A stretch of 59,901 nucleotides of DNA, filler included, from Rhabdomonas costata (Eukaryota): NCBI GenBank assembly GCA_019059605.1. It is 11 parts of 11 records of this genome, joined end to end, with 100 filler letters (N's around TTAATTAATTAA, not from the genome) between each part and the next. Parts side by side here need not be neighbours in the genome. Positions count along the whole stretch, not along the records: positions 49,284 to 54,585 come from JAHMHO010000080.1; 10 more parts are not named here. The stretch is one strand, 5' to 3'. This document shows positions 3,001-58,200 of this stretch, in pieces. Each line of letters begins with the position of its first letter. Position 1 is the stretch's first letter. Both the position numbers and the translations under genes were made by a program. The notes below the pieces were generated by a model, which made no database searches, was not told the DNA's origin, and saw only the letters and a list, made by a program, of their open reading frames with translations.

Positions 3001-4139
3001 ACTTTCACTGCCTATTCATCCATTTCTCTGAGTCCCATCGATCAATCCGTCCCTCTCCTAATTTCTCCAGTGCTCAGAGCAGAGTCTCACTTCTTCAGTG
3101 CCTACGCTTGCGACACGGGCCCCTGTGCTCCCCGCTCTTCATCCTAGACACTAGATTCGTTCGCTCTTCCAATCGTACGCAACTCTGCCCACCATAGGCA
3201 TCTTCTTTTGCTTTTCAAAGCAACCTGTTCAAAGCAAACAGTTGTCAACGGCCATGGCAGCTGTTCTGTTTGCTTTTGGAATCCTCAGATACCCTTGCGA
3301 GCAGCCCTGGTTGGGTCTGATTTGTGGCCCTGGACCGTCCGGAGCAGTCGTCCCCACTGAGCTGTACCTTTCGGCTCCCATTTGCGCGCTGTCTGCCGCG
3401 CTGCCCTCCTCCGCTACCTCCCCGCTGAACTTCAGTGCGCTCGCTACACTTCCTCTTCTCTCGCTCCGCTTGGAGTCTGATCTGTTCGGCGGGACTGTCC
3501 CACTGGATCAATTGCCCCACACCCTAAAGGTTGTTCTCCCTGCGATATAACACCATTCATTCAAGAGTTTTCCCTTAGGTCAGCCTGACCTGTGACGTTG
3601 ATAGGCGAAGTGGCCGAAACCTCGTCTTGGGGTGCTCGTCTCCGCACCTGCAATTTTTGGGGTTGTGCAACCCTGGCTCCAGGGGAGGGGGGCGGTTCGC
3701 GGCTTGGGTTTCTTCCAAATCTCGGCATTTTGTCGCCGGGTGTTCCTCAGGACTCCGTGTTTGGGTATGGAACAGGAGCTGACTCTGCAGGGCTGCCGCT
3801 TCACGGGCACCGTGGACCTCAGCCACGCCCCGGCGGGATTGCAAACGCTGTCGTTGGCGGACAACGCCTTCACGGGCACCCCCAACCTCACCGCACTGCC
3901 CTTCTCGGCGGTGGCAGTGAGTCTCAGCAGGAACCACTTCAACGGCACTGTGGTGCTTTCTGGGCTTCCGCCTAACCTCACAGTGCTTAGCCTGTCATGG
4001 AACCAGCTGACTGGTCTTGTGGTGGGGAACGACACTGCGGGTGTGTTCGCGAGGAACAATCTCAGTCTAGACCTTTTTGGCAACCCCGGTTTGGCCTGTC
4101 CTGTGGAGCCGCCATCGTGGGTCGCGATACCCTGCACTG
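95..4139 (+). CDS. Partial multi-exon extracellular leucine-rich-repeat protein with at least two capped LRR modules
   Basis: Frame-compatible GT-AG exons at 95-376, 912-2204, 2582-2675, 3289-3529 and 3776-4139. The last donor is a possible GC (GCATGT); alternatively the frame reads on to the stop at 4372. N-caps are DALLKF...SW...PCGGKWVGVSC and ...ISWALGYPCEQPWLGLIC. There are many LxxLDLSxNxxxG repeats. C-caps are NPYVCPLP and NPGLACPV. Confidence 0.85.
703..748. repeat. Short dispersed repeat, second copy at 33372-33418
   Basis: AGAGCAAAAGGGGACGTC(G/T)TCAGT...AAACCTGCACATGACC occurs in non-coding sequence of two different contigs. Confidence 0.75.
2779..3540 (+). repeat. Direct duplication of about 760 bp, copy 1 (intron plus LRR exon 3289-3529)
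   Basis: Begins CAAGATTTACCTCCCCCTAGATGTGCTCAG and aligns along its length with 4615-5368. Confidence 0.95.
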
Positions 4140-4614
4140 GCATGTTACCTCCTCTTGCTCCTTGGCGATTTCCCTTGACGATACGCGGTAAGGTATGGTG
4201 GCAATGCCCAGTGTATGGTTCAGCAAAGCATGCCGTGGTATTCGCGCTTGCGTTTTTTTGCACGAGTTCTATGTTGTGTGTATCCATCGGAGAGGCAGGC
4301 CCCAGGAGATGGTATATAGAAGCCTGCGATGGCTCCCCTCCCCACACAGACACGCACACACCCGGTGTTTAATGGCCGACCCGACGAAGAATATCGGTAT
4401 CAAAACTTTCTGGCGAAGCCGTTTCGTTACGGTTCCTTTTTCGGGACCACTCAACAAGGGTGAACTTGTTCATTGACCCCCCCCCCTTGTAATGGAGAGC
4501 GAAAATACAGCAGAGGAATCAGCTTCTTCTTCTTCTTTCTGTTTCTCTTTTTTGGTGATGGAATCTCACCCTCACTTGGGGGTGGTAAACAGCCCATTGC
4601 GAGTGGTTCTTCCA

Positions 4615-5377: not shown

Positions 5378-5477
5378 NNNNNNNNNNNNNNNNNNNNNNN
5401 NNNNNNNNNNNNNNNNNNNNNTTAATTAATTAANNNNNNNNNNNNNNNNNNNNNNNNNNNNNNNNNNNNNNNNNNNN
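5378..5477. other. Artificial contig linker N44-TTAATTAATTAA-N44; also at 11006-11105, 16506-16605, 21968-22067, 27431-27530, 32893-32992, 38367-38466, 43785-43884, 49184-49283 and 54586-54685
   Basis: Ten identical 100-nt spacers with stop codons in all six frames. Confidence 0.99.
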
Positions 5478-6259
5478 GTTGTGGGGGATCAAGCGCGTTG
5501 AATAAGGCGCCGTGTTGAGGCGTTCGATAATAGCCCTGCCTGAAACTGCGCGTCAGAAGAGAGCACGCTGGAGACGACCGCAAAGGTGTTTCAGTCAGAG
5601 TGCCATGCACGCGTGTCCCCGTGATACGTCTGACCTGAGATAAGATCGATGGATCGGATGGAATGGACGCATCTAGCATCTACGAGACACAGCTGACAGC
5701 AACATACGTGGCTGGTCTGTCAAGCAACCGCTAGATTGGAGGAGAAATGATTACACATTGCAGTCTCAATGGCTTTCGAAGGCGGGGGTACCATTGGCTC
5801 TCTATGGCGTAAGTGGAATCATCATGGGTGCCTATGTGGCTACTCGTCATGGAGGTCTTAATCTTTTTTCGTTGCGCTGATTCTGGGGCTCTTTGCGCTT
5901 AGGATTATTTGTTCTTCCCACTGAGGCAATGGTTGTAATCGCGGTGGAGGCTTTTTTAACAAATTGGATTGCCATTGTCCATTTGGCTTCCATGATATTG
6001 GAGCAAAGTACTGTACTTCCAAACCTCTTCCAAACGGACCGAAATTGGGCAAAGAGAGCTCATATGTCATTCCGTGGCCGAAATTGAGTGAGCAACTAGA
6101 ACCGCGAATGCTCCATGTCTGGTCCAACTCAAGTCAGGCAACGGTATCATGCCGGTTCGCGACATCACCGCTCCTCTGGCATCCGTTATGGACCAGTGCA
6201 TCCAAAGTCCTGTCACCATTGGTAACTCTGACTACTGTGGTGCATTTTAATCTTGATAT

Positions 6260-9200
6260 CTGAAGTTTTAATGTAATTAAGAATGCCATATTTATTTGCA
6301 TCAACTGGTACTGGTTTGTTTTGATTACAACGTTTCTCAGCGTCATCAAGTCTAAAATGATGTGAATGCTTGTTTGTAATGTGTACTAATCCAAAAACAC
6401 GCAACATGCTCGCAAGTGCACTGATATACTTGCGCAAAAAACCACCATGTTGCATGACATTTTTACCAGCAAATATTTGCACTATCCAGTTGCTACAAAG
6501 CCTTAATTATAATAATGTACAGTATAATATACTATTTTTATTTTAAACCACACAAGCCCACGACACACCACCACGTTTTTATACATCCAAACACTTTTGT
6601 CAACTACACCCACACGCGCACTAGTATTCTCTCGGTTTCGAATTAACACATCAACTACTCCACGTGCACCTTAGTTTCAATAGTTCCACACATCCATAAA
6701 AACTTGAAACTTAGCATATATGTATTGTTTACAAAAACTACTAAAGCATTTACAATAAAGCATTAAACACCTTTCCATTTTCACGAGATCTAGAATTATC
6801 GACTCAACCAAAAGCTGAGAAGTCATGGTCATGGGACCATCAGTTGGCACATCAAATGCAAATACCATCAAATACAAATACCATCAAATTTAGTGGTTTG
6901 GTTCTAAACAGCACCCAAACATTTCCTATAATTAGCATTACCAGACAATTGGCATAATGTTTTTTTACAAGATTAGAGTGAAACAATTATGGGACTGCTG
7001 ACCATCAGACATCATCCCTTAATACAAATCTGAACACTAGTGTCGCGCAACTATTTAGATCACACCACACATCACACCACAAACGGAAGTTGACTTGGAA
7101 AAAAGCACTGTGCCGGGTGGACACANNNNNNNNNNNNNNNNNNNNNNNNNNNNNNNNNNNNNNNNNNNNNNNNNNNNNNNNNNNNNNNNNNNNNNNNNNN
7201 NNNNNNNNNNNNNNNNNNNNNNNNNNNNNNNNNNNNNNNNNNNNNNNNNNNNNNNNNNNNNNNNNNNNNNNNNNNNNNNNNNNNNNNNNNNNNAAAGGTG
7301 CATAAAATATACAGAGGCAACATAACACAACTTGCAGTCAATTAATGAAGACATAAAAATCCGCTGAGACAAATATAATCTAACTGACATGCTCTCAAAA
7401 CGCCCCAATCTAAAGAAACATTTACCGAATCAGATTAGAATCTCCTGCGGAATATCAGCACATCAGATGTAGAGCAGAAGCTAAGGGCACTTGGAAGTTA
7501 CCAGAAAGACTGCATTTTACTAATTTACTGCATTTTTACTAGTGATAAGTCATCTGTAAATGCAAAATAGTAGAAAATCTTAAATATCAAACGTGCTGCT
7601 GCTATTTGGGTTTTATACTCATCCAAATGGGATACACTCCAAAAGTTTATATGCACTTCTATGACTAGTGACTTCGATCAAGCTGGTTAAGGATCATCTT
7701 TTTCAAAGTTGTTAATTTTGACCGCATCCGAACAGCCCACAGAGCAACACCACGTTGGCAATCAAATCATCAAATCATCATGCACTTTTATACAAGCAAC
7801 CACATTTGCTTGTTTAGATGTTAGAGCCTACCAGCTGTCATGGGGCCGAGACTGAAGAAAATACAGCTTTGCCGCCTACAGATATGATAGATACCTAACA
7901 CCAGAAGTACTATTTAACGCTGTTTATTTTGTCAACATTGAAGGTCACTTCATCCACAGAAGTCAATGACGTATCACTATTTTTAACCACAAGAGGTCAA
8001 AGCCACACACAATTGGAGCAGAAAATCTGGTTTAATTTCCGGTAAAGCTCTCCAATTTATATTTTCGTGATTTTCTTGTTTCATACTATGTAAACAGTTC
8101 TATTTAGAAATCAATGGCTGAATGTATCTACATGAATAAGAACTTACTCACTAGACAAATATATGCATCCTGTGAACGGAAACATGGTGCCATGGTGACT
8201 CTTACGTACAATATGTTATACTTATTTGAGATTTATACACTGTGGCTATCTTGAACCTGATTTAAAGTCATTTAATGATGATTATCATCTACTACTTTCT
8301 TTTTTATTTACGAGCTCAAGATAATTGGTCAACCAGCCTGTTTACCGTTTATCAACTGGTCCAGCATTACACTGTACATGACCAGTCGTCACCGATCTGA
8401 GGTACAATTTATTTGACTATGTGGGGACAATCATTGCGAACACAGTTGTGATTGCAAGACAAGATCTTCTACCAAATAACACCACAATGCAACATCCGGT
8501 TGTAAGTCACTTGGTGATCAGTATAGAGGCCAATTAACAACTTAAATTCAGAAAAATGCAATTGACGGGTTTTATAGACGTTAATTCCTGTGATATTTCA
8601 TTACAAGCATGAAGAATTTGTGGACAAAATGAAGATCACAACTTGTAAATAGAAATCAATTAAAATGAATTTATAGTCAAGCTGCACATATTAAACAAAT
8701 ACTGAAGACTTGTAATTCAGATTTGACTGTTAACGAAAATGGCTAAGAATCAAATATGGCTATCCACTCTTCCGAGCAATATTGGGAAACGGAATCCCAC
8801 TGTCAGTTATTTCTGATTAGACTCTTGATTTGCGTTATTTTTTGTTAAACACTTTGTTTGCACACAAACATTTCCCGATTTGAATCCCATTTTTGCAATT
8901 CAAGAAGAGTTATCACAAGTTACTTGCTAAAGCGTTGCTTTTGCTACCACTTGTATCGTATGCGTGTTCAAAATTTGCTCTAATGAGACAATCTAAGTGC
9001 TGAATACATTGGCCATTGCACATTCAAGCTGACATTTTTTGAAGAAAAATTCACTATTCGAAGTTTTCGTAATTATTTTTATTCACACCATAACCGCTGA
9101 TAAATAGCAGTATTGTGAATGTAAACAGGATAGATTGTACACCCATGCAAATGATTGACCTAAAAATCAATGTACGGAGGTGGATTATTGGGCTAAACGT

Positions 9201-9370: not shown

Positions 9371-11105
9371 ATTTTAAATTCCGAGTACCCGAGCCAGAAA
9401 ATTTGTTAAGGTTTGGATTTTTCTGCTCCCATCAGTTTTTTCAAACCAACAAACGGGCTTTTGGAAAGGCGGGTTTTGAAAGCGCGGCATTGGCGACAAA
9501 AAGATTTGAAAGAATTTGAGAAGATCCCATGAGACACAACGGCACGCGGAACTACGCCAATTCGTCCAATTCGCCTGGATTTCGACGTGCCAGCGCTTTG
9601 CCGCGCGCAAAGACAGGACTTCCCCGAATCACCGTTCATAAGCGGTTGCGGCGTGGGCTTGTGATGTTCCAAGAGGGTAAGTCGTTGGTCAAATGTGCTG
9701 TTAAAAGCAGAAATACGGTATGGGTATATGGAATTTTTGGGTTCGGAGCTAAAATGATTGCTCCGAAATAGCAACCGCCTACGGTCCGAGGGTATGCAGG
9801 GACATTCCTTGGTCAAAGCGGGTGGACCTCGTCCAAGTCCAAGTCCAAGTAGACAGTTTGCCAGGGTTCAAGTCACCCCGGTACCTTTTGAGAAGTGAAC
9901 TTGTTTCAGCATGGCGCGGCGGGTCCCGTCCGGTCTATGGCAGCTCTTCCGGTGGGGGTGCTTTCCCCTCGGGGCCCTGGGTCAGCGGACCACCGTCCGT
10001 TGGATTTTCCACATGGGGTTGCATTTGTCCAGCCAGACCCGTCCCCATGTGCACTCGCGAACCGGTCTTGCTGAGGCCATCGGCAAACCCTCTCGGCGAA
10101 CCTTCTCGGGGGTCGCCGCTGTGCACGTTGACGGGCTACCGCGTTGCCGGGAACCACGTTTACAACACAATTGTCAACCTTACCTGAATTGTTCTTTTTT
10201 GTCGGCAACCCATACAAATCCCCAGCATTAGATTCCTCGCGTTTCGAGTACCCACCACAGTTCTGCTCTTGAAATTCTTTGAGCGCACCGATCCAAAGCC
10301 CCCCTTTGCTCTGGACAACACACAACCAAACTGCACTGTAACCCTTTCGATCTAGTCCAGCTTAGGTGCACGTTCCAAGATCGCACTCTCCTGCTGTTTC
10401 TCTTCCGCTTCCTCGGCCTCAGCCGCAGGCCCAGCCCCTCTGTGGCGCGACCGGGCCTTCCCTCGGGAGTGTGGCCTAGTGGTGGTCGCCATGTCCCACA
10501 GCCGCACCACACCCGCGGAGGCCCCTGCCAAGGCAACGGCAGCCAAGCAGTAAGGTCATTTGAGCTCTACCGCGTGAAGATTGAGGTGCTGTTTCGGCTT
10601 TTTTCTTTTGCAATGGGTGGATATCTTTAACCTACTCGTTTAATGAGCACGCATACGTGCAAGTCCTTCTCACGGGTGGTTAGGGCGGTCACAATCTGTC
10701 TTTCAACCCACTTAATAATTAAATCCGCCTATTTAAGGACGGAAAACAGTATATCTGACCATATTTTGAGTAAAAAAAAGTATCTGAGTGAGTTTAGGGG
10801 TAATTGACACCGCTCACCTAACTCCAGTGCAAAAATAACACCACCAAAAAGTGACGGGTATGGTCGTTAAGCACTGCTGACCAGAGCCTCACAGCTATGT
10901 GAAACATTTCAACCGATTCGCCCGCTCCTGCCGAGCCGCGGACTGACCTCCCCAAAAAAACGTGTCTGTCCAAGCCCAGCAATTTTTGAATTTGCAAAAC
11001 CCAACNNNNNNNNNNNNNNNNNNNNNNNNNNNNNNNNNNNNNNNNNNNNTTAATTAATTAANNNNNNNNNNNNNNNNNNNNNNNNNNNNNNNNNNNNNNN
11101 NNNNN

Positions 11106-16505: not shown

Positions 16506-16605
16506 NNNNNNNNNNNNNNNNNNNNNNNNNNNNNNNNNNNNNNNNNNNNTTAATTAATTAANNNNNNNNNNNNNNNNNNNNNNNNNNNNNNNNNNNNNNN
16601 NNNNN

Positions 16606-19688: not shown

Positions 19689-22600
19689 ACACATACACAT
19701 AAACACACGAGCACTGCCTCCTGAACCACTGCGACACAATTGATCTCTCCGGATGACCACAGAGAAGACGCTGGGGAGGGAAATCCGGATCGCTAAGACT
19801 TTAGTCAACCCTCCCGCTTAGCCGCGACCTGACCCTGACCTGATGGATTAGCATCGCCGATAAAGAGATGGATGGCGGCAATGGGTGCGCAGCGGAGCAG
19901 TAAGCCTGCATCAAAGCTCTCGCTCAACACGTCAGCAGGCCTGAAGAGGGAACAACACAGAAGGATCTTTGCAGGCCACACACCCCGTCGCCGGTAGGTT
20001 CCCAAGGCCCAGTAGCACAGGGAGTGGTCCCCGACGCAGTCGTTGAAAACACCCCACAATCGAGGCAGTCCCTCTATTCTAAACTCTATACTACACACGC
20101 ACCTCGGGAAAAAGGAAGGGGAAACCAGCCCTGCCCTTCTGAATTGCGTGGGCTCTGTCCAGGGTCTGGGATGGGAACCATCTTCGCTCTGACACCCAGC
20201 ATGACACTCATTTCAGGTTCTTACCTCTTTTTGTCTTACGCTGGTGATATTTTGTGATTAACACGATCCAAAATTTCGTTTGGCGAGGCGTTGTGGTTTG
20301 GGAGAACATCAGCAATGTACCAAGAAAAGAAAGCAGCCCAACGGGAAGATCACGGAAAGTGCACGCAGTTCAGGAGCAGGAACGATGTGTACACAGTCAA
20401 CCCCACTGTGGATTGGTCCAAAGGGAACACGGGGCAAATGGCGGGGAAGGCGGGCACGGCGGACAGGAAAGTTTTCCGTGCACGTGACCCAAGTTAGACG
20501 ATGACCCGAATGAGGGAATAAACCGAAAGAAGGCCTTTCGGTGATGCATCGTGACGTGCAGCCTGCGTAGGGCAAACTGCCTGTCTTGTCTATCTGAACA
20601 CTGCAGCTCATTTGACACAACACACAAATTTCGCGAGCTCTAGAGAGAGAGCAGAGCAGGCAAGGCGCTGCATGTGTGTGGATGTGTCCAATAGGGTTAC
20701 CGCTCGGGAGGGGGGGGGGCTGGTGGATGCCAACTCATAGCAGCCATGGAAGATGAGTATGCGGAAACACCCCGAAAAGACACCCAAGGGCACAATACAG
20801 CCGCATCCCAGAGAAGCGGAGGCAAAAGTAAAACCGAGCCCACGCGGGCTATGCAATGCAGCCGTAGAGCGCTCAACACAACGAAACAGCACACCAATGT
20901 ACACCATTGCTCGCACTGTCCCGGGGAGTGTGGGGAGTGCCTCCTGGTTGTCCATACGTCGGCGTCGGCGTCGGCGCCTTCGCGTGCAGTTCCAGAAAGG
21001 AGGCGGTGGTGAGCGAACAAACAAAAGGTAACACAATCCAATGGCAACACGGTAAAGTGAGGAACAAGGGGAGAGGAGATCGAAGGCAGTGGAGGGAGTG
21101 GGCAGGGCAAACGAAGAGAGGGCAGCCCAACCGTCTCCTGACGTCCGTTTTTTCCCAAAAGGTTGAACACGGGACGCGGTGCATCACACAATGGCACACA
21201 AGAAGGGCACAGAGACGAAGTGAGAGAAAAGGGAGCAGAAGTGGCAGGCGGTGCTCTCGTTGAGTAGCGCAAGAGGGATGCTGCACCTCCACTTTTCACC
21301 CTTGCTCACGTCGAGGTTTTCGAGGGGAGCCCGAGCCCCCCACGCAGGAAGACCACCACCACCACACCTTCTATGGGCCTTGGAGTGGCGGCACCCCCCT
21401 TTGCACAGCAGTAAAGGGAGCAAGCAAAGCATATTACAGGACGATCGGAAATTTTCCCATCCACACGAACACGGCTGGTGAAAGGTCTGGGTTGAGGTCC
21501 GTTCCAGATCCTAACTCCCTGAATATCGGGATAGTATTGCCTTGAAGTAGCTGCAAAGAAGGCGCAACACTGGCAGCTCCCAGCTGCACCTGGAGCAATC
21601 ACAAAACTGCACACAGTGCCTGGCGTTGTGCTTCGATTCCTTCTTCGTCAAAAAGCACTCGCAGCCTGCTTGAGCGCCCACAATGGTACAATATTTTCTC
21701 ATGTCACGCACTTTTTACACAGGCACGTGGAGGTGGGGAGCGACTACCACTGTGCACCCCGTTAAAGCCAAATGCAGATTTTCCCTCCGGGCGGAGAGGA
21801 GGAGCAACCGTATTCCCATCAATCAGCAAAATACAGACAGAAAAGAGATTGTAATGAAACCCCAAAACCCAAGCTGTGAATCGAGTACAGCTTGAAAGTC
21901 CTCCCCTGAATCGGCTTGCCATAAAAACATCCGCTAATTCGGGGCAACACAATGACAACCGTATGAGNNNNNNNNNNNNNNNNNNNNNNNNNNNNNNNNN
22001 NNNNNNNNNNNTTAATTAATTAANNNNNNNNNNNNNNNNNNNNNNNNNNNNNNNNNNNNNNNNNNNNTGTGTTGGGGAGGGGAGGGGAGCCGAGGTTACC
22101 GATGGTAACGATTAGTCTTGTTCTTGGCAATTCATTGAAGAGTCTTCTCTGTCTTTTTGTATTTCTGCTATCAATTCCGTTTCCCTTGAGAAAGGATGGC
22201 AAGTTGAACCCCCTGTGGGGTGGAGCCTGACCATGGACGGTAGCTTTTCGAGGCGCTGGGTGCTTGTGCCTCTTCCCGCCGTTTGGCCAAATTCTAGTGC
22301 TGCCGCTGCCGCGGCGGTGGTAGGTAGTGGGATCAACCTCTCCGGTGGACTGGGCCCGGCTTCCCCCTGGTTCGCAAGGACCATTGCGACTCCCCCTCAG
22401 TACCCAACCCGTCCCTCGGCCACTCGCAGGGGATCATACCAGGGCACTCCGAAGGGCTGGCAAAGAGTGAAGGCTGCGGAAGCCCGTGGTATGCCATTAT
22501 CACCCAACTCTTCTAACCGACCTGCATCCCACGTCCACCCCAACCAGGTCACTGTTATGCTTAGGGACGGCAAAAAAGCTGGCAAGAAAACCGGAAGTCT

Positions 22601-26802: not shown

Positions 26803-27530
26803 GTACGTGTCTGTTAGTATTTTGGTACGTTAAGGTGTTGAGACGTGTGTAGTAATCTGATGGAGATCTCTTGGTCCGAGTGATGTGGTTGCTGTTTGTG
26901 TGATGTCTCAGCGATTCTTGAGAATTGAGATTTGTTGCACCCCTTTTCTCACCATTTCCCTTCCCTTCCTCTTCCTCCCCTTCCCCTTCCCTCGGGGAAA
27001 TGGGGGGAAGGAAGGATGAAGGGGTGTGAGGACAGGAAGGTAAGACACGGGTAATGCAATGGAAAGAGGCCTGAGAGAGTGAAGCTGCAGAGATAAGAAA
27101 ATGCGATGTGCACTGATGCAAGTGCGAGTCCACATCAAACAAGAGTGCGCAGGATGGAAAGAGTTCCCTGTCTCCCTTTCACTTGGTTTCTTTGTTTAGA
27201 TGTGTACCCCCCCCCCGCCGGTTTGACGACTTTGGACAACCTCTCAGGCTGAACTTGAGAATCAACAATTGCAAAGGCTTTACCCCAGTATATCTCTGTC
27301 CACAATTCACGTCAAACCAGGTTTCCCGGTATTCCATACACCCAAAGCCAAAGCCAAATCCAAAATCTATTGGCGCAATGTTCCCCCACATCCTTCTAAG
27401 GTAGGCTGCCTCTGAATTCCATGCGAGCTGNNNNNNNNNNNNNNNNNNNNNNNNNNNNNNNNNNNNNNNNNNNNTTAATTAATTAANNNNNNNNNNNNNN
27501 NNNNNNNNNNNNNNNNNNNNNNNNNNNNNN

Positions 27531-32870: not shown

Positions 32871-33524
32871 CTGAGGGGGGCAACCCCAACACNNNNNNNN
32901 NNNNNNNNNNNNNNNNNNNNNNNNNNNNNNNNNNNNTTAATTAATTAANNNNNNNNNNNNNNNNNNNNNNNNNNNNNNNNNNNNNNNNNNNNGGTTGTTT
33001 TTACGGCCTTGGGGTACAGCGTGGATTATTGTATCTTACAAAGCATTTGCACGTTGAACTTGATCGTCAAGTTCTTCTTGTGGAGGAGGGTCAGGATATC
33101 ATACCCTGTCATCAACCAATTCCTTTGACTATTTTCTGTCGATTGTATGGTTAAGATGTGAAGCTGCTGACGGCGTCTTCTTCCGTAGTGTTATGTATGG
33201 CATCTTAGAAGGGAGTAAGTATCTACCCTGTTGGCAAGTATATCTTCCGTAGGTTTGGATTCTCTTGGTGCGTGCCCAATCACTCCCTACCAAAGCGCTA
33301 TGGCCAGCTGCCCAGGGATCCGGACACCCTCTTTTTCCGTGGTGGTTGCTCTTTCGTCTCACCGGAAACAAAGAGCAAAAGGGGACGTCTTCAGTAGAAA
33401 CAAAACCTGCACATGACCCTCACACCCATCTTGAGAGAGTGAGAGGGAACGAAACTGGGTGAGAGCTGACCGAGCTCCACTTTCGACAAAGATACATACA
33501 CTCTCACTCGCTGTACAAACACAG

Positions 33525-38056: not shown

Positions 38057-38466
38057 GTCTGCAATGCTACTATCCTCTGTGAAGGGAGGAAATACAGTCT
38101 GCGCGCTGGAGCGCGCTGGAGCCTGGACGTCATAGTGCTCGGATCTTGCAAACGTTGGCTTCTAATCTCCGCAAGAAGACGTGTGTTTTGGCCACAGCGG
38201 AATGTAGGGCATGCGGAGGATGTTACCGATGCAACCTGGGCGTTTAGATTGATAGCATTTTTATGTAATATTTGAAAGTCTCCCTCTCCCCCTCATCGGT
38301 TCGTATCCTGCCTCGTCTTCTTGCGCTCGTGTATGCAGCATTTTCCATTCAATTCGCAAACACAAANNNNNNNNNNNNNNNNNNNNNNNNNNNNNNNNNN
38401 NNNNNNNNNNTTAATTAATTAANNNNNNNNNNNNNNNNNNNNNNNNNNNNNNNNNNNNNNNNNNNN

Positions 38467-39810: not shown

Positions 39811-42800
39811 CATGAAGGACACGGTGAACTCCTTCTTGTTCATCTGGTCGGCCAGCCAGTCCACTTTCCTGCGGGTGTTGCAGAAGATCACGGACTGCGC
39901 GATGGACACGCTGTCGTAGAGGTCCATCAGCGTCTCCAGCTTGAACTCCTCCTCCACGGCGACGTAGAACTGCTTGATACCGTCCAAGGTCAGCGCCTCC
40001 TGCAAGTCCCCACACACCGACCGGTGGGTTGGCCAAGGTTCTTCATTTCTCATGAAAAAGTCACTGTAGACGGGGATCATTCATTTTGATATATGAGGAA
40101 AGAGTAAAATTTTGCTTCCTTTTGCAAAATAGCCGACAAAATAGCCGTACCACGCCTTTAGGCAAGAGAGCCCGGGTAACCATGTGCTCAACTGAAAATT
40201 CATGGAAAGGCACTCGACAGACAAAATTCAAACAAAAGGCAGGAAAGTCCGGCGTGCGCGCCTTCTGCACGAGGATCCTGGTGGGGTCTCGCATGAACTT
40301 CTGGGTGAGGTCCAGCACCTCCGCCGGCATCGTGGCGGAGAACAGCGCGACCTGGATGTCCTTGGGGAGGAACTTGAAGATCTCATAGATCTGCTCCGAG
40401 AACCCTAAAATAGCCATTATTACGAAGAGACGCAAAAGCTGTAATCGCTCGCTGAAACATCCTTCTCCTTTCACAGAGCTCCTATTTTTAACTTATTTGT
40501 TTACATACACAAAAAAGAACAATTTCTTTTTGCGTTCGGCCCGGTTCTGGTCCCAAAGACTCACAAGGGATGCCATCCAGCAAATCGGGTCGAGACTTGA
40601 GCCTAAGCCAGTGGGACAAAATCCTACAGCCCTCGTCCCGCAGACTCCGCAGAGGATAGAACCCTGATTATCATATGCGTGGAGCATGGATGACAAAATA
40701 ACCCCACGGTTCTCGGTAGGAGGGGAAAGGTCCCAGCAGCCTGCAGCAGGGACTTAACAACTTTCAACGGCGTGGAGAAGAACCTACCATTGAAAAAGGT
40801 TGTGGGCAGCGGAAAGGTGCTTCCGGACCCGCCGACCAGCCGCATGATGGCAGGAACCAACAACTTCTTCCAAGCTCTCCCACTTTTTCTTGTAGTTCGC
40901 GCAAGCAGAAAGGATTGTATGCGTGTTTTCCAAAAAGCCTGAGACCTGCGGGGCTGGCGATGCGTCCTGGCCTGTGTGAGCTGCCTGATAGTGCTATAGG
41001 ACGCCCCCGTGCACGCACCGTTGGGAGGTGAAAAGGTATTTAGAAAAGGGAACGGGGGCTCATTTTTCAGCAACAACAATGTCATAACCTCCATCCCAGC
41101 ACAAGTAGAAGGTTGGAAAATAAAGGTAGAAATAAAGGTGTCGTAGTCAGCTTAGCCTGGGTGACGCTGTTAAGAGGGCGAGGCTTCGACATTCCTTGAG
41201 AGAGCATCTCATCAGCCTCGTCCAGCACCAGAACCTTGAGGGAGTCCGTGCGCAGCGCGCCTCGCTTGATCACATCCCACACTCGGCCGGGGGTGCCTAC
41301 GGCGACCAGAACTCCGGCCTGAAGCTTCCTCAAGTCATCCGCAACTCGGGTCCCCCCGACGAAGGTCGCGCAGAAGTTGGTGTGTCCCTCCGCCAAGAAG
41401 TCCCCGATGTGGGAGACCACCTGCGCCGTCCCACCACAGGCAGACTTCTCTATAACTCGAGCTAGCCAAACAATGCGCACAGTCGTGCACTGAATTGTGA
41501 AAGCGAACAATGCACCATAAATCCAAAGCTTTTGCAAACTCCCGTGTTTGTGCATGTTATCGTACGAGGAGACTGGCGAGCAACGGCGAATATCGGCTAA
41601 TCCGTTAGTGCCTGCTCCCCCCCCCCTGTGTTAAGGCGCCGCTATAATTTGCGCTATGATTTGTTTTAGCGGCGCTATTACTGGGTGTCCACGATTATTG
41701 TAACCAAAATGAATTCCCTCTAAAATTCTCAAAAATGTAGAGTATTTTTTTGTGAGATTTTTTTCGTGGCAGACCCAGCTGCTATTGGTTGTGGTCTTGT
41801 TGCAAAAACACCCCTCAAAACTGACCCAAACACGATGGTTTGGATTACGCCAAGGCTGTGAGCGCATATTTGCTCGAGGTCCCCAGTGCTTACGCCCCTC
41901 TGCGCGACATTTTCCCGTGGACTCAGGCGGTTCCTGGCCGTTGGCTGTTTCCATTTCCACCTTGAAAAGCAAAAATTTCCGCTGGGAAACGAGGGTTTGA
42001 ACCCTCGCAACGGTTATCCCTGTGGGCTCCCGTGCCCTGCGCCCCCAGGTTCCTGCGGCCCCTCTTAGGGACCATAAGCCGGGCAAATGGTGTCTGGCTG
42101 TTCGAATGGGTGCAGAGCGTAGTACAATTTGCAATAAATCTTACGTAGGCACTTGCGTATGTGTATAAACTCCAGTTGGTGCAACGACTGAAGCGGGGGA
42201 CAAAGCCAAGAGGTTGCGATTCCACAGTTGGGTCTTGGCCAAGTGACGGTCGCCCCTTCTTGCAAAATGGCTGACGAGGCGCAGTTCTGCATGTCAACAA
42301 GCATGTCAACAGTCAACAAGCAGAACTGCGCCAGAAAGAGGGGAACCGAGAACCCCCATGCCATTATAGAGCAAGAAGGGCAAATCTTCAATAACGGCAC
42401 GGTGCGGGGTTAGGGCCAAGACAATTCTTCCCTTCTTCATTTCCAAAATGGCGGCTCAAAAACCCTGACAGGGCCACAGTGTGCGAAATTGCAGAAGCCG
42501 TGAAACCGGGAGGTGCACTTTACCAATTACCACCGAATTACCAATTTTTTTCATTAGAATACTTCGATTAGTAGCAGAGGGGTTGCAGACAAGTACTCGG
42601 ACCGCCAGAGCGGAAGGGATGAGTAAGGTTGGATCAGGGGTGGCGAGGGGCCTGACCTGCTCCGTCTGCAGGGCCAGCTCTCGCGTTGGGGAGAGCACCA
42701 AGGCCTGGCAGACCCGGTTGCTGAAGTCCACCCGCTGCAGCAGGCCCACGGTGAAGGCTCCCGTCTTGCCCGTGCCGGACTGCGCCTGGGCGATGATATC

Positions 42801-43542: not shown

Positions 43543-44115
43543 GTAAGTGTGCTCTTCCGTATTTTATTCAGGCAAACGTGTATAAGTTGTTATCCCCTAT
43601 ATCCATGCCGCTGCAAAGTGCACATATGGCACTATTCTTACTATGGAACTATACTTAATGCACCCCTCCTCCCTCCTTTCCTGGAACCCATAAGTGCGCA
43701 CCCACAGAGCACAAAAAACCCAAAGTACAGAAAAAGTAGTCCACGTATCCAGGGGGATGGGCCCCCGGACCCCCCCCCCCCTGCNNNNNNNNNNNNNNNN
43801 NNNNNNNNNNNNNNNNNNNNNNNNNNNNTTAATTAATTAANNNNNNNNNNNNNNNNNNNNNNNNNNNNNNNNNNNNNNNNNNNNGTTGGTTCCTTTGCTT
43901 CAAAGAGGAGGCGGTATTACTGTATTACGCTGGGCATCTGGTTGGAGAGATAGAAGCCAGATGGAGACCGCTGGCGAAGTTTAGGTAATAACGCGACCTT
44001 GGCAAGCTCCTGCGAATTTTGGCGATAATCGTCTGCACCGTGGAAGGAAATGCTTTGCCACTTGAGCCTCTCCTGTACAATCAGTTTTGCCATGAGTGCG
44101 CTTTTTGACTGCAAG

Positions 44116-48744: not shown

Positions 48745-50486
48745 GTCTTTGCGCACCCCTAACCCCGCACTCCACTGTGTGGGCCTGTGCATTTTGTTGG
48801 GGTGGGGTGGGGTGTCGCTTTTGCTGCGCATTTCTACATCAACTCACCCCCTCCCTGGCAACGTTCCCGCCTCAGCCGCCCGCTCCGGCGCCGCGGGCTC
48901 GGCTACGCGGCCGCGGCGTTAGCCTTCGCCACTAAAATAACTGTTCCTTTTGTTTGACTGGGGACCGTTCATCACAGGTCCCTGCAAACTCACCGAAGTC
49001 AGCCTCTAACACACCAGAAAAACCGAGGAGGCGCCCCGATTGTAACACACCGTTTAACAACGTCAAACCGTTAATGTCATTAAACCCTTTAGCACCCCCC
49101 CCCAAAAAAAAAGAGAGAGAGAGAGAATTGAGTTTGTGTGTTCGGTGGGGTGGGGTCGGATACAGCCCAACGTCCCCCCAACCNNNNNNNNNNNNNNNNN
49201 NNNNNNNNNNNNNNNNNNNNNNNNNNNTTAATTAATTAANNNNNNNNNNNNNNNNNNNNNNNNNNNNNNNNNNNNNNNNNNNNGGGGTGGTGTTGAGGTA
49301 ATACCGAAGTCCACATCGATCGGGTCCTCACTGTCACGCCCTCTTTTCTGAGAAAAAAAAGAAAAAAAAGAAAAATAGAAGAGACCCAAATAGAATAAAT
49401 ACCAACTGAAAGAGTCACCTCCCCTGCTACGACACCCATCTGTAAATGCTCATGCGCGCGCTTTATTTCCCATCCGTTCGCTGCGACTGTTTCAATTTCC
49501 TTTTACCTAGCAAGGAGTTCAGCAGAACTATTGCCTCTGTAAACGAATGAGCCTGGTCGTTGCAGCACAACCCATCTTCGATTCCTCTTCTTTTGTGGGT
49601 CTGCTGAAAACGTAAACAAAATCGCACTCCACTCTCCTCGTTTGGGACGCATCGTGTGTGTGTGTGTGTGGGAGTTCTTTGAAAACGTTCTTTGTAAAAG
49701 GAAGGCACGACGACAAAAGCGTCCCAAAAATTGAAAAGTACAAAAACGTAATGCAAAACGAGGGGGCAAACCGAGACGGGAGTGGGGGAGAGCACCAGAG
49801 GATTGGGCCTTTTATGCAGAGACCGGCCACGGAACGCGGGCAGTACAGGTGGCACTGCGTGCCCCGGCACTGAGCACGGGGGCAGCGGAGGAGGATAGCA
49901 CGGGGTGCCCCTCTCGTCGGCAACTCCACTCGGCATAGCCTGCAACAACCAGAGACGGGAATGAAGGGAGTTGGGTGGCATCCGAGAGATATCGTCACAG
50001 AGGATGAGAGAAAGGCTGAAAGAGGGGGCGTATGAGGTGTGGGTGTTTTGTGCAGGGCTTCTGTCAATGGGGGCCAAGATTCTTCCCAGGGATGATTTCC
50101 CAATGTGCGACTCTGATCACTCTGGGGTAGTGAGATGGATTGGGGGTCGGTGATGCTTGATGTTTGGCTTGACCCCAAAAATTAGATAGCAGAGTGAAGC
50201 AGTTCGAGTTCGGTTATTTTCTCAGGCGATTGCAACGAGGGGCTCCCATGGTTTAGCCTCAGGATAATATTAAGAAATCCTTTGAACACTGCGTCGCAGC
50301 TGTGTCACTCTCTGTGTCTGATTTCCTGCTGCATGTGTCTTCCCCACGAACATAGACACACAAACACGCACTTCGTGCACTTGGCAAGGGCGCACGCGCA
50401 AACACAAGGACAAATATAGCATCCACGTCAACCCAAAATGACACTGTGAGAGTGTGTATGTGTGTGCCTCTCCGTGGTGTGGGGTG

Positions 50487-51613: not shown

Positions 51614-54170
51614 TCAGCAGCTTCCCGCAGGGGCCGAGCGCAGGACGGCCAGCCGGGCAGCCACCATCTCCACAAACCTCGCCGTGGTGACATAATTCTT
51701 CATCGTCACCGTGTTGAACGCGCTGAGCTGGATCGAGCCCACGGTCTGTGCCAGGTCCTGGGTCATCGTGTGCGCCTCCACGGTGGAGACCGCGGCCTTG
51801 GGTTGAGCAGGGGAAGACCGCATCGCACCTCATTACAACGGAACGCAACACCCATTAAAGCGAATATAGACTGTACCACAAATTTCAGATTAAGGGAAAT
51901 GATCGTGATGACCATGAGGGTTCAAGCAATCCCTTACTCACCAAACAATAAGTTATGACTCATTTTAAACGGAAGAGTGATTCAAGAGCATTAGATCCTG
52001 GCGATCCACAGGGGATGCTAATACAAAAAAACTAGCGGAGCAATGTTCTGCTCTTCGTTTGAGAACTGACAGTGACATGTTGCTAGGCCCCCGCTGACAT
52101 GCCCGAGCTCTCAACAACCTTTTCCACGTCGTTGGCAAACTTCACCAGCTCGGCGCTGCCATCGACAGTGCCGCGGCGTCTCAGGGCGTTGGTCCAGCTA
52201 AAGATCGTCGGAAGGGGATTAGTACTGGGCTGCCTTCCCGCGCGGTAGGCCTTGTAGTGTCGTGGCACCGTGCCGTGCGTGGTGGTGGTCAGGCAGACCT
52301 TACCCTCGCAGGATAGCAGCTTTTTGGTTGGTGTCACCCCCAATGTAAAAAAAGTGTGAGCCCACTGACGGGACACTGAAGAGACCCATGTTAACAGAAT
52401 GGAACAGAGAGCACACATTTAAAAACCAAAGGATCCTGGAAGAGTGAGTTGCTGAGATCGGGAGCATATTCTGAAACGGCCTCGCAGGGGCGACTGGCCA
52501 CAGGGACGAAAGGAGATTCGCAAAAAAGATACGCAACTGCGGCGATGAAATGAGTAACATGAGCACATGGAAAGGCCCGCACCGTGGATGTCATCAGCCC
52601 GACGGACCCGAAGCCTTGCCCAATCAGGCTGGAGGCGTTCATCCCGTCATGGCTCTTGCAGGCCCACACAAAGTTTCCTGCGTTGCGCCGTGCAAAGGGA
52701 AGCAAAGTGCGATGGTTGCAGCCGCAGCGGCGCAAAGGCGCAAAGCACCGTGCGCTTCGTAATATTCACACACTGTGCACTAAGCACAGAAAGTCGTGCG
52801 GCACAACGGAATTCATCGATACAGGTCTAATTCAACTGGCCGAGCCACGGGCCTGGACGATTCCGACACGGTCATCTGTGGTCGTGTGTCCCAAGCTGTG
52901 GACAGCACCCAACCACTAAACTCTCACACGCAAAGAGACGCGACGAAGAATAGAACCGAAAAGAGGGAAGGTGACACACCCTCGCTTCGGAGGCAGAGTG
53001 CGACCATGTCGTCGATGAGGTGGTGAGAGTAGGTCAGTCCGCGCCCTTCATACTCCGATCGAAACTCCGCATCGTAGATTTTCTGAGACCATCCGCAACC
53101 CGGAAAATAGGGCAAAACTTCAGTCTCCACTTCCATCTATGTGTGAATCATCAAGAAAAAAGAGAGATAAAGGGTCCTTGACAAATACCAGAGGTCGGGG
53201 GTGCAATGCTGACAAAATGAGCTGGAAGCTGGAAAGCTGGCAAAGCAGCAGAAAACATGCGAGAGTGAGAGAGCCTTAGGAAGGTAGCCCCGACCTGGAA
53301 AGTGTCCACATAGAGGCCATCGTAGTGCGTTAGAACGGTGCACTTCGTGCTCAAAAGCACCGGCAGCCCGCGCTCCAGCCCGTACCGGAACACGCACCGC
53401 GCAAACTCCGTGACCCAGGCCACGGTGTTGAAGCTCCCCATCGCTATCCCCGCGCCCGGGTACGAGTACAGCTCTTGGGTCACCACAGGTGATCTGTTGC
53501 GGGAACGCGCATCAACAGGAGCCGCGCGTATTCTCTAGTATGGATTTTGCATGCTTGGTTGGATCTGCCTCTTATTGTGTCGACTTCGTCTCGTTCTGTC
53601 GTGGTCAAGATATCGGATGGTGTACCTATGGTGCCTTATGGTGCCTCGGTTTTGAGATGCCAATCATGGGATAGTTTGGGTTTGTGGGTTCTTGCTATAC
53701 CAGTTAAATGCAAACGCACCTGCAGTGCGGTTGCACCACCTCACCTGACAAAGCACAGAGAGCTTGGTTAGTTTTGAATCCTTGACGTGGGAAACCTTAT
53801 AAACGGAAACCTGGGTAGTCTGCCTCTCAGCGTGCTGCTTGATGGCAATTCCCCATGAAGAAACGTGTTAATAACCTACAACCTGGGGGGTATTGTCATT
53901 GAGTGTGGATCTTGCACAGCAAAGAAGGCGGCTGCCAGCGCACACGTGTGCTAGAGAAGAGAGTTGGGATAAAAAATAGGCGAAGGGTGGATGCATACCC
54001 ATCTGTCGGGGTGAAGCGCATCTGCATCAGCCCCGCGGAGGACACCGCAACTTGCCTGGCGTTGGTGCGCTCGCCATGAGCGCAGCAGGCAATCACAATA
54101 GGGGCCTTCCAGGACTTCACCAGCCGAGGGATACCCCGGATAACGATAGGCTGCCGAAACTCCGTGCCCC
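51614..54170 (-). CDS. NADP-dependent isocitrate dehydrogenase homologue with a degenerate active site (probable pseudoenzyme), 5' part off-contig
   Basis: Six in-frame GT-AG exons give GGTEFRQPI...IPRLV..W..PIVI, LSTKCTVL..YDG, HLIDDMVA, WACKSHDG...QGFGSVGLMTS, HGTVPRHY, STNP..IFSWT..L..RG and MTQDLA, ending in a TGA at 51616-51614. Confidence 0.92.
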
Positions 54171-55209
54171 CTGGGTAGCAGATCCAAAGGCCCAATCCCA
54201 ACCCCGCGCCACGACAGCGTTAAGCCGGCATAAAAAGAGACCATTCGTGCACACCAGGTTCGTGCACAAATTACATGCATCTTAGAGCGAGCCAACCTTA
54301 AGATTTCAAGAAAGAAGAAAAAAAAGGGGGGGGGGGGACGGACGATGAATGAAGTTACGGAGTTGCGACTGCCGTGTTCGGATAGAGCACATACGTACAG
54401 CATCTAACAACATAGAGGAACGTCTTTTGCTCAAGATTGTGTGTGGCAAATTCACCACTTGAACATCCGGTGAATTAAGGTTCAAGGTTTGGGGATATAT
54501 TATCATAATTTCACCACATTGCACACGACTTCAAAACGATTCTACAGAAAACGAATGAGCACCACTCCCAATGAACCCACCACAANNNNNNNNNNNNNNN
54601 NNNNNNNNNNNNNNNNNNNNNNNNNNNNNTTAATTAATTAANNNNNNNNNNNNNNNNNNNNNNNNNNNNNNNNNNNNNNNNNNNNACCCGCGAACCCCAC
54701 ACGCACAACCTTGTGCTTTTCGAAGGTGTTGGGCGGAGAGCAATGGACACCAATGGTGGAAAAGCGACAGCTCTTTTGCAGTATCGCCCTTTCTTGGGTG
54801 TGCAGAGCACCATCGGTAGAGAACCATCCGGCACTTGAAAACTAGGTTCAAATTGGACTTCAGCAGTGGGTCTATTCACCACCTAACTCGCCAAGGTGTA
54901 CCGTTAGATTCAAGGAGATTATCGCAATTGTCCTTACCAAGCCCATTCACAACGAACTGCTAAAGGAAGGTCGTGAAAGGAAATAGGCCAGTCATAGGCA
55001 ATCAGAAGAACACTGGTACACCGAACCTGATACACACATGCACCGAACCTAGCTGGGAAGCAACTATTGACACCCTGGCACCAAGCTGCAGGCAAACGCC
55101 GAACACTGCCGATCACACACTTTGGCCACAGCTACTGAAGGCCAATGTGAGCGGCAGGTATGAACCAGATCTAGTTGTCACAAGGGAGGTGCGGGTGGCC
55201 AGTTCAAAC

Positions 55210-58200
55210 CTGCTCATTCTCGGCACGTGCACTCTGCTGCTTAATTGTCCTTAGCAAGTCCTCCTTCTGCATGGAGCGGGCGTAGATAAAGTCCTGAACC
55301 TGCAAACGGCATGAAAAAAGGGAGCGAGATGTCCGAGGCAAGAGTAAGGGCAAATCAAATAACCGCAAGAAACACCAACGCCTTTCCACAGCTGGGTATC
55401 CAAAAAAGGTCAACGCAGGGAGATAGATTGTGGACCTCAGCGTTCCTTCCCAGAGCGCAGGCTCGCAATAGGACGTGGCCATTCACCGAACCTCTATTTT
55501 GAGTAAACACTTGTGAGATTTGATATGGATGGGGTGGGGAGCGGGAGAATGTCCCGCGAATGCCGCATGCCCGTCCGCGGTGAAGCTCCGCGGCCTCGGA
55601 GACACTGGAGTAGAAAGTGATGCCCTCCTTCAGGTTCGCCACAATCTCCTCAAACTTCTTGCAGGTTGCCTGCAGTGTGGCAACGGCCTGCGGAAGAGAG
55701 GAGATGCCCCAACGTACCCATCATAGTGCAACAGAGCTTTGGAGATGCAGAGAGGGTTTCCGTGAGTGAGAGAGTGCATGTGTGTCACAATGATGGGTCT
55801 ACTGCAACAAAATAGTTGCATCACTACAGTTTAGCGCGGGGGCTTAATCTTCCGACAGTGGGCGTGAGCCTTTCCGCCAAACGGTTTGTCGACACCCCGA
55901 GCAAGCTGAGGCTCGCAGCCGAGGCGTGCAGTGCAACTGGTTGATGTGGACCAAATGTTTTCGTACGCTGGTTGTTTGTTCTGATCAGCTCCTTCCAACC
56001 GCTCTGTCACAGCGATGCCACGAGGTGCCGGCTGACCGCCACTACGACTTCTCTGCGTCAACGTATGTGCGGACCTGCTCTCGGGAGCTGATCATGGCGT
56101 CTGCCTTGCGGCTTTTTGCAACCTCCTCCATGGCGGCGGAGGCCCGGCCCAGCAGGGCATCCCCGGACGCCACCACGGTAGCCAGCTCCTTCTCCTTCTC
56201 CTCGTACTTCTTCAGGGTCTGCGACAACACCGCCTCCTGACCATCCCTGGGCCAATGGGGGGAGAAGAGGGCTGGGGTGGTTGAACGGGATGAAGGCGAA
56301 CAACCATTGCCGAGAGGAGCGCTTGACCGAAACCGCGTCACGAGGCTGGAAATTGTTGCTCCACGAAGCCGTCTCAGCAAAACATCAACCAGGTTTGGGC
56401 GCGCTCCCAAAGAATGTCAGGAAACGAACCACAGGAACGAACGAGATGAGGGATAATGGGGGGAAAGGCTATGACATTTCGTCTGAAGGTGGGGGCGTTG
56501 CACGAGCAACCCGCCCTTCTCAACGCAGAAGAGAGGCCAGCACAGCGTACGTTCCGGCGGCAGCTAGCTTCAGGGCAATCTCCTTGTTGTCTTGCTCCTG
56601 CAGCTCGCGGACCTGGTTCAGCACAGCCTGCATTGCGGGCGGACCAGGGAGAGAGTGAGAGAAGCGGGTGAGCGGTGTGACAAACCGCTCAAAGCGGCGT
56701 GACCACGATGATACGATACCTCTGGGCACGTGGTCCATTCCGAGAGATTGCTTTGATTGATTGATGATTTATTGATTGACTGATTGATTGATTGCAGGAT
56801 CGACAATAGACGTTCTTTGAACAGCATTGGAGCGGGCAAAAGTGCCAATATCTTTGACTGACGTCACTTCATGGAGGGAGTGGTATGTAGAAACGCCCCA
56901 GCAGATAATTGGCACGGAGCCTGGGGTATATATTCCTCTCTCTCTCTCTCTCTCTCTCGTTAATGGGGTGTGAGAAATTTACCAGGCAAGGCTGTTTGCT
57001 GTTCGCTCCAGTAATATTTTCCACGTGCTGCGCTCTGAATAGATTGATATGAGGTGTGATTTGCCCAGCTTCGACTTCTACAGGAGATAACTATCAATCT
57101 TGAGTCGCCGCTCTCTATTTGCCTTTCGCTTAACGCCAGTCACTGAATATGTTTTGATGACCGATGCTCATCGACAGGGAAGGCTTTTTCCCTGCCGTCC
57201 CCACCTGCTCCGCAGCATCGCTGGCCTCGAACTGCTTTAGCAGCTCCTTGAGCTGCTGCACAGTGGTGAAATACGGGCGGGCACCGCTCCCGCCGCTGCT
57301 CTCCGAGGGCAGCTCCGACATTGCTTCCAGCCTGGAAACGACACGTGGAAGCTCCAACGGGGAGGGATGGGAGGTTTTCCCAGTCAAAACGAAAAGCAAG
57401 AGCACCACGGATCACCGAGATCAAAAAAAAACAAATCACTGTTCCCAAAGATTATTGGCAGCCCACCCGTCTCAAAACCCCTTCGGAGACCGGAGACTTC
57501 TGATTTGGTGATAAAGTTCAGCTGAACCCCCCACCGAACCACAACATGCTTTGAAGGGCGCGTTGCAAAACTTTGGGATATGGACGGATGGGTTCAGATA
57601 GGAATTTATCACTTGCATAACCCCTCACTCATGACAGGCACCTGTCCCGAGGCCAGTTCAGCTGCATCAAAGCCTCCGTGCTCTCCGCGATCTTCCGCAG
57701 TATCACGGCATCCCCTATTCAAACCGTGTGCAAAACCTAACGACAAAACCGAACCACCATGATAGATCTGCTATTGAGCTTTCCATTTGTTGTTTATGAT
57801 CATGGAAAGAAGTCTCCGTGTGACAGAGCAATTCAGTAGCAGACCAAAGAAAGACCAGAGTCGTTGTTCAACGTTCCAGGAGAAGGGCTGGGGGCAGCAG
57901 TACACACCACCAAGAGGGCAGAGGATGAAAGAAAGTGCATGGCAAGCACACGGGAAAGGTGACTGGACTACCATTAATCACTCCTTTTGTCAGCTTTGGA
58001 AAAGTTTGACTGAACAATCGTGTTTCACATTGATGTCCAATGCTGGGCCAGCAAATCGCGGTGGAACACCAAACTAATGGCTTGGTCGCGAAGAATAGCA
58101 GAAAGCATGCAGTGATATCGGCCCTCTCTCGTTTCTACAAACCAGACTGCGCTTGGGCAATCTTCAGGTTGAGGTCAGAAAGGGCCTGGGCGAGGTCCCG

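Follow-up and report, generated by a model that had tools for sequence, protein, structure and literature searches.

An expressed and probably non-catalytic NADP-isocitrate dehydrogenase paralogue in the euglenid Rhabdomonas costata

What does an isocitrate dehydrogenase (IDH) gene encode once most of the residues that make the enzyme work have been replaced? The question is raised by a locus of Rhabdomonas costata (assembly GCA_019059605.1). The window analysed here, 59,901 nucleotides, consists of eleven contigs, each 5.3–5.5 kb, that were artificially chained by linkers of the form N44-TTAATTAATTAA-N44; synteny across a linker is meaningless because the contigs were joined in this way. The contig at 49284–54585 carries on its minus strand, from 54170 to 51614, a gene of the IDH1/IDH2 type in which R132 of human IDH1 is a cysteine and several other active-site residues are replaced. 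We consider that its product, RCo004576, is probably (at about 0.6) an expressed pseudoenzyme that is kept by selection.

The gene model comprises six open exons, which translate into 316 residues followed by a stop codon and correspond to positions 105–414 of human IDH1, whose numbering is used here for site residues (Table 1). The original prediction of six open exons with canonical splice sites was upheld when the exon/intron borders were checked: all five introns run GT...AG (505, 212, 302, 263, and 322 nucleotides, in order from exon 1), and an AG acceptor also precedes position 54170. The homologue had also been called intact. This is not readable from the window, because the contig stops 415 nucleotides upstream of the first exon seen. 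The window covers residues 111–426 of a 426-residue protein, about 110 codons lie beyond the contig end, and tblastn with the full protein against the whole window returned the six exons only and no 5′ exons. The transcript-derived protein is complete, and to that extent the description stands. It was found by searching longer proteins with exon 5, where one of 55 candidates (P0001) was eukprot:RCo004576, 426 residues long and 99% identical. The window model and this protein share all five splice junctions and 314 of 316 residues. In the window lie the 3′ two thirds of a nuclear R. costata gene whose product is RCo004576, and the earlier guess of a euglenozoan source proved right, R. costata being a euglenid.

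The R. costata protein set was predicted from the transcriptome; genes were not predicted on the genome, as the draft was too fragmented (143,763 contigs, 153 of them of at least 5 kb; PMC8219788). Table S8 of that paper enters RCo004576 with "Splice leader present" = Y, and a recognisable leader is found on only 15.3% of R. costata transcripts. Because this leader-bearing transcript matches the window exons, the gene is transcribed, spliced at the inferred junctions, and trans-spliced; the presence of the leader also makes a complete 5′ end likely. A contaminant or a mis-assembly could in principle mimic such a locus, since the assembly is highly fragmented and the transcriptome is reported to include bacterial contaminants (relevant part of PMC8219788). 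However, contig and transcript come from separate assemblies and still agree in sequence and in splicing as given above, spliceosomal introns are present, and the transcript carries the organism's own spliced leader (Table S8). An artefact is thus hardly credible.

Judged by its sequence, the gene is a descendant of the homodimeric NADP-isocitrate dehydrogenase family, subfamily II (IDH1/IDH2 type). RCo004576 is 41–46% identical to canonical homologues, and its homology to the canonical structures is full-length (E values of 1e-100 to 1e-112, approximately 40% identity). It passes the NF006156/PRK08299 model (411.8 bits; cut-off 335) and matches Pfam PF00180 (92.1; cut-off 27) over residues 194–391 only, but it misses the curated cut-off of TIGR00127 nadp_idh_euk (380.1 against 397.15). 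The AlphaFold2 model has a predicted local distance difference test score (pLDDT) of 90.1 and a predicted template modelling score of 0.90, with pLDDT dips to 74–78 in the rebuilt loops. The top Foldseek matches of this model are mouse IDH2, T. cruzi IDH, yeast IDP1, and human IDH1 (template modelling score 0.91–0.96, root mean square deviation 1.6–2.4, about 413 columns). The IDH1/2 fold, with its large, small, and clasp domains, is predicted to be intact. In a 41-row tree, the end branch of RCo004576 measures 1.83 changes per column versus 0.045–0.34 for canonical rows, that is, 5–40 times longer. This quick-method tree, built without euglenozoan canonical sequences, left the protein unplaced owing to long branches.

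The likeness to canonical subfamily II enzymes (human IDH1 1t09/1t0l, mouse IDH2 5h3e, T. cruzi 6ajc, T. brucei 6aj6, and M. tuberculosis ICD-1 4hcx) extends to fold, length, and the HGTVxRH and STNP motifs, and ends at the active site. When single exons were aligned by HMMER to IDH chains of known structure, no gap fell in the critical regions (exon 1 to residues 105–160 of human 1t09, exon 4 to 265–293), and these alignments confirmed R132C, H133C, Y139T, D275M, and D279S at exactly the codons first assigned to them (Table 1). That R109, K212, D252, HGTVxRH, and STNP are kept was confirmed as well; T214 is likewise kept, and the window reads HGTVPRH. The reported change of EAAHG to TTTHG also holds, with LTTTTHG in place of the canonical EAEAAHG. 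The damage is wider than the original prediction had it: R82E, N96S, R100W, K260R, E306S/T, and T313P fall on invariant or nearly invariant columns, of which R82E, N96S, and R100W lie in the N-terminal third, seen only in the transcript-derived protein. For comparison we used 119 canonical homologues that are mutually 62–100% identical (mean 72%). All 119 have R82, N96, R100, R132, H133, Y139, K260, D275, and D279; T313 occurs in 118 and E306 in at least 118, and all eleven are replaced in RCo004576. On this comparison, the loss of R132, H133, Y139, D275, and D279 together is far beyond chance. In all, RCo004576 departs from the canonical residue at 57 of 147 near-invariant columns. The residues kept are K72, T75, T77, S94, R109, K212, T214, D252, D253, D273, H309, T311, R314, H315, and N328.

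The passages on the active site in PMC3521221 describe isocitrate as bound by N96, R100, R109, R132, and Y139, place K212′ and D252′ in the site, and name D275 as a metal binder and R314 and H315 as NADP binders. The corresponding part of bioRxiv 10.1101/2020.04.19.049387 describes K212′ as catalytic, D275 as binding both ligand and metal, and R100, R109, and R132 as coordinating the substrate. Two of the three members of this arginine triad are lost (R100W, R132C) and R109 is kept; N96 is lost too. In the catalytic pair, Tyr139 is replaced and Lys212′ is kept, and among the metal aspartates D275 and D279 are replaced and D252′ is kept. For NADP binding, K72, T75, T77, H309, T311, R314, H315, and N328 are kept, and R82E, N96S, E306S/T, T313P, and K260R are changed (the site roles of D279, R82, and E306 are those we take them to have).

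Three elements are required for metal-dependent oxidative decarboxylation: a metal bound by Asp, arginines to bind the carboxylates, and the Tyr/Lys pair. Because of D275M, D279S, R100W, R132C, N96S, and Y139T, we infer that RCo004576 can catalyze neither isocitrate oxidation nor 2-oxoglutarate reduction of the R132C type. Cys132 is common to RCo004576 and the cancer allele IDH1 R132C (e.g., 7pjm). The cancer enzyme, however, keeps Y139, R100, D275, D279, and the metal, and makes 2-hydroxyglutarate; since RCo004576 has lost these four residues, the shared cysteine does not imply the same chemistry. Production of 2-hydroxyglutarate in the manner of R132C was considered and appears unlikely, given the loss of the metal ligands D275 and D279.

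Loss of activity could simply precede loss of the gene. The reading frame is open over 316 codons in the window and over 426 codons in the transcript. The G+C content at third codon positions (GC3) is 0.795 in the 316 codons versus a G+C content of 0.496 in the introns. When evolution of the 316-codon frame was simulated with substitutions only, it remained open in 22, 8, 5, and 1 of 400 runs at 80, 70, 61, and 50% identity, respectively. The replacements are also unevenly placed. In the pocket segments 35 of 70 invariant columns are changed, versus 22 of 77 outside them (Fisher p = 0.006), and the replacements in the pocket are harsher (mean BLOSUM62 score of -0.77 versus +0.50 outside; p = 0.013). 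It is because of the open frame, the GC3 contrast, the trans-spliced transcript, the confident predicted fold, and these concentrated, harsher replacements that we favor a pseudoenzyme kept by selection. The original prediction had proposed the same. The dismantled site, the transcript, the frame, the GC3 contrast, and the predicted fold agree with it, and the gene does not look like a young pseudogene. Neither of the two more specific roles named there, an NADP(H) sensor and a regulatory subunit that donates K212 and D252 in trans, gained support from the present analysis.

Several points weigh against selection or against a loss of function. The simulated odds at 61 and 50% identity (1.25 and 0.25%, respectively) are small but not overwhelming; the simulation ignores indels and covers only the 316 codons. 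The pocket segments were delimited post hoc from ligand residues, with the data already in view. Genome and transcript differ at residue 122 (Gly in the window, Ala in the transcript; 54133–54135) and at residue 311 (Thr and Ser, respectively; 52284–52286). Canonical IDHs do not vary at either position, and the differences may reflect two alleles, a further gene copy, or an error. Taken with the change of 39% of the invariant columns, they also fit a broadly relaxed constraint. On the nicotinamide side the NADP site is damaged (R82E, N96S, E306S/T, and T313P), so that binding of NADP(H) is, as far as the residues indicate, not assured. No orthologue in which the substitutions might be conserved turned up among the protein and metagenome matches listed. 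In addition, Table S8 treats the protein as an ordinary "Isocitrate dehydrogenase (NADP+)" of the tricarboxylic acid (TCA) cycle, number 12 on the metabolic map, and gives as its Euglena orthologue EG_transcript_9064, a protein enriched in the mitochondrial proteome (PMC8219788).

The same table lists four further K00031 transcripts, RCo032279, RCo007826, RCo040025, and RCo050230. The isocitrate step therefore need not depend on RCo004576, and these other transcripts can cover it in the TCA cycle. With such transcripts at hand, RCo004576 could be a redundant duplicate under relaxed selection, transcribed but functionless and heading for loss; the 57 altered columns, the two genome/transcript differences, and the absence of an orthologue from the protein and metagenome searches all suit this explanation. 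It does not sit well with a frame that has stayed open over 316 and 426 codons despite a branch of this length, and simulated frames at 61% identity or less did so in at most 5 of 400 runs. The GC3 contrast, the mildness of the replacements outside the pocket, and the confident predicted fold also argue against decay, which we regard as very unlikely.

The searches for close relatives covered proteins and metagenomes. In a word-indexed search of proteins of similar length, 7856 of 8000 candidates matched at E ≤ 0.001, and the best non-self match among the best 120 of the 7856 is 46% identical. Among shorter proteins, 275 of 1219 candidates matched, and none of the best 120 of these exceeds 52% identity or spans more than 56% of the query. 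An exhaustive search of 1.84 billion cluster representatives gave 4148 matches at E ≤ 0.001; in the best 150 of the 4148, identity peaks at 41% for a full-length non-self protein and at 53% for a short stretch, and RCo004576 is the representative of its own cluster. A metagenome scan with six 8-residue peptide patterns gave 154 stretches, none of which was confirmed, and a metagenome DNA scan for WACKxxDGM gave 94 loci with no true relative. Only two of these loci, L087 and L018, were IDH-like, and both were rejected: they are canonical-like IDH genes with a frame shift, and the Met of the pattern arises at the shift. The absence of closer relatives is weak evidence, because heterotrophic euglenids are poorly sampled and exon-sized fragments of an intron-split orthologue would rank below the matches listed.

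A dead paralogue may also be kept for the sake of a live one. RCo004576 might heterodimerize with an active IDH1/2-type subunit and donate K212, T214, and D252, giving one complete site and a half-active, regulated enzyme. Precisely these trans-acting residues are kept (3/3), against 3/9 of the cis-acting substrate and metal residues. This contrast is not significant, however (Fisher p = 0.09), and 61% of the invariant columns are kept regardless. The surroundings of K212 have changed, with N213C and K217T close to it, and helix alpha10 (residues 276–287), which we take to lie at the dimer interface, is heavily altered. The model for such a heterodimer is provided by the non-catalytic subunits of NAD-IDH (yeast Idh1p and mammalian IDH3 beta and gamma), in which a subunit with a degenerate site is paired with a catalytic one. 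Those subunits belong to a different subfamily and form well-established hetero-oligomers, whereas the heterodimer of RCo004576 is putative. A possible partner is RCo032279, a second IDH1/2-like transcript in Table S8 (PMC8219788), but it has weak mitochondrial predictions there and RCo004576 has none, and their compartments may differ. Within Euglenozoa, dead paralogues that activate live partners are established (AdoMetDC prozyme, PMC5201418; DHS, PMC3663545). Like RCo004576, these trypanosomatid prozymes are retained dead paralogues; their folds are unrelated and partner activation is proven, whereas for RCo004576 it is hypothetical. We judge a prozyme-like role to be unlikely, though the idea has its appeal in a phylum with such prozymes.

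The phylum also has an IDH-fold subunit of ATP synthase, ATPTB3, an IDH-superfamily protein in a non-enzymatic role that is of the homoisocitrate dehydrogenase/NAD-IDH type. That RCo004576 is itself ATPTB3 (E. gracilis 6TDV chain B) was rejected, as no 6tdv chain occurs among the Protein Data Bank matches at E ≤ 1e-20; these comprise 47 sequences, namely 46 IDH1/2-type chains and 6lkz. The R. costata orthologue of ATPTB3 is RCo012196 in Table S8 (PMC8219788).

Rebuilding of the pocket for new chemistry must also be weighed. The Mg2+/tricarboxylate pocket would have become a Cys-Cys-Met-Trp-Cys pocket (R132C, H133C, D275M, R100W, and N213C of the partner chain) beside the adenosine-2′-phosphate site and Lys212, and the protein might be a metal-independent NADPH-linked enzyme acting on another substrate or a thiol-based redox or metabolite sensor. 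The concentration of the replacements in the pocket would be expected on this account, and the NADP site retains its adenosine side. RCo004576 contains 12 cysteines, versus a median of 4 (range 2–8) in the 119 homologues. Of the 57 replacements at invariant columns, 5 introduce a cysteine, R132C, H133C, and N213C among them; the chance of at least 5 is 0.002–0.02, depending on the background cysteine frequency. To our knowledge, however, all enzymes of the IDH superfamily use an Asp-bound metal. R82, N96, and E306 on the nicotinamide side are lost, pLDDT falls to 74–78 in the very loops that are rebuilt, and no conserved orthologue was found against which fixation of the new residues could be judged. 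New chemistry, of either the enzymatic or the sensing kind, thus seems a doubtful prospect. If it were true, RCo004576 with its rebuilt pocket would be the first to be worked out of a larger group of repurposed protist NADP-IDH paralogues that has gone unrecognised.

As an expressed pseudoenzyme, RCo004576 would have lost the metal-dependent isocitrate oxidation and 2-oxoglutarate reduction of its family, and its gene would still be transcribed and trans-spliced, with the frame held open by selection. Its role would most likely be that of a dimeric binding protein. Its ligand site would be the remnant of the pocket, that is, the adenosine-2′-phosphate side of the NADP site (H309, R314, H315, N328, K72, T75, and T77), used alongside K212, T214, and D252. 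In Table S8 the protein stands without a TargetP or MitoFates score (PMC8219788). As no presequence is predicted and the leader makes the 5′ end likely complete, a location outside the mitochondrion is suggested, and a protein with no targeting signal would probably be cytosolic. That the protein is inactive, that selection maintains it, where it resides, and what it might bind or pair with are deductions from one species, the free-living euglenid R. costata; what the analysis establishes is the exon structure of the gene, its substitutions and how rare they are, a transcript, a predicted fold, an unusually long branch, and no close relatives among the matches listed.

Other degenerate IDH1/2-type protist proteins came up among the matches listed in the search of cluster representatives and were checked by L-INS-i alignment. 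In Ichthyophthirius multifiliis P0177, which bears the source name "mitochondrial isocitrate dehydrogenase, putative", 7 of 8 core residues are changed. Most core residues are replaced in Paulinella chromatophora P0146, and P0197 and P0241 are further IDH1/2-type proteins with degenerate sites. Dinoflagellate proteins of 650–850 residues from Polykrikos, Noctiluca, and MMETSP transcripts (Polykrikos P0124, Noctiluca P0393/P0394, and also P0128, P0139, P0150, and P0153) carry an N-terminal extension ahead of the IDH1/2-like domain, with EF-hand matches in the extensions of P0124, P0128, and P0150. Several catalytic residues are replaced in most of these EF-hand and IDH-like proteins, and P0153 also has R132C. 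P0124, P0128, P0139, P0150, and P0153 form a supported clade (Shimodaira–Hasegawa-like approximate likelihood ratio test 99) separate from RCo004576. All these degenerate proteins are 29–38% identical to RCo004576, and none groups with it. Because their sets of replacements differ, they point to independent events. Two other proteins with unusual architecture were noted: P0125, an 817-residue Clostridia protein with a fused IDH domain, whose cluster also holds fragments of UTP-glucose-1-phosphate uridylyltransferase, and P0142, with a PNP_UDP_1 phosphorylase domain N-terminal to the IDH domain.

The features of the window are collected in Table 1. The first contig has two open frames with leucine-rich repeats (LRR), one of 473 residues with an LRRNT_2 domain. 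Another contig has an open frame that matches a DEAD/DEAH box helicase domain (E value of 4e-10). At a separate place in the window, a stretch of G+C content 0.35, versus approximately 0.52 elsewhere, surrounds a gap of 168 Ns. The contig that follows the IDH contig in the chain has three exon-like open pieces, rich in Lys and Glu and probably coiled-coil; as a separate contig it is uninformative on the IDH locus.

Table 1. Coordinates of the IDH paralogue and of other features in the window
Feature	Position	Strand	Remarks
Part of an intron, 415 nucleotides, cut by the contig end	54171..54585	-	upstream of the first exon seen
Exon 1 seen, phase 1	53999..54170	-	residues ~105-161; R109 54156-54154; R132C 54087-54085; H133C 54084-54082; Y139T 54066-54064
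Exon 2	53295..53493	-	clasp region, LSTKCT motif; K212 53345-53343 and T214 53339-53337 kept; N213 is Cys
Exon 3	52980..53082	-	LIDDMVA; D252 53013-53011 and D253 kept; K260 is Arg
Exon 4	52583..52677	-	contains WACKSHDGMNASS; D273 kept; D275M 52642-52640; D279S 52630-52628
Exon 5	52119..52319	-	contains LTTTTHGTVPRH and STNP; H309, R314, H315, N328 kept; T313 is Pro
E306 codon in exon 5	52286-52284	-	Thr in genome, Ser in transcript
Exon 6 and stop	51614..51796	-	stop codon 51616-51614; C-terminus ...APAGSC, without an SKL-type ending
Linkers	5378-5477, 11006-11105, 16506-16605, 21968-22067, 27431-27530, 32893-32992, 38367-38466, 43785-43884, 49184-49283, 54586-54685		
LRR frame with LRRNT_2	806-2224	+	
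Second LRR frame	3605-4369	+	
Stretch of low G+C content	6001-8000		gap at 7126-7293
DEAD/DEAH box helicase frame	41085-41630	-	
Lys/Glu-rich pieces	55240-56260	-	

No paper describing a non-catalytic member of the homodimeric IDH1/2 NADP family came up in a literature search, and section 8 of a review on euglenozoan IDHs (PMC9512073) mentions none. The original prediction that no such member is known thus stands for print, but the databases hold the degenerate protist proteins described above. The sequence of RCo004576 is itself already public, annotated as an ordinary IDH, and it is not discussed where "isocitrate" occurs in the main text of PMC8219788. Its listing as an IDH (NADP+) of the TCA cycle probably needs correction. 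Together with its ciliate, dinoflagellate, and Paulinella relatives, RCo004576 hints at repeated origins of dead NADP-IDH paralogues. Owing to the cancer alleles at R132, IDH1 and IDH2 are among the best-studied metabolic enzymes. Here a natural, expressed protein has R132C and, along with it, lacks the catalytic tyrosine, two substrate arginines, and two ligands of the metal, and as far as the predicted fold indicates, it shows how much replacement the IDH1/2 scaffold may tolerate.

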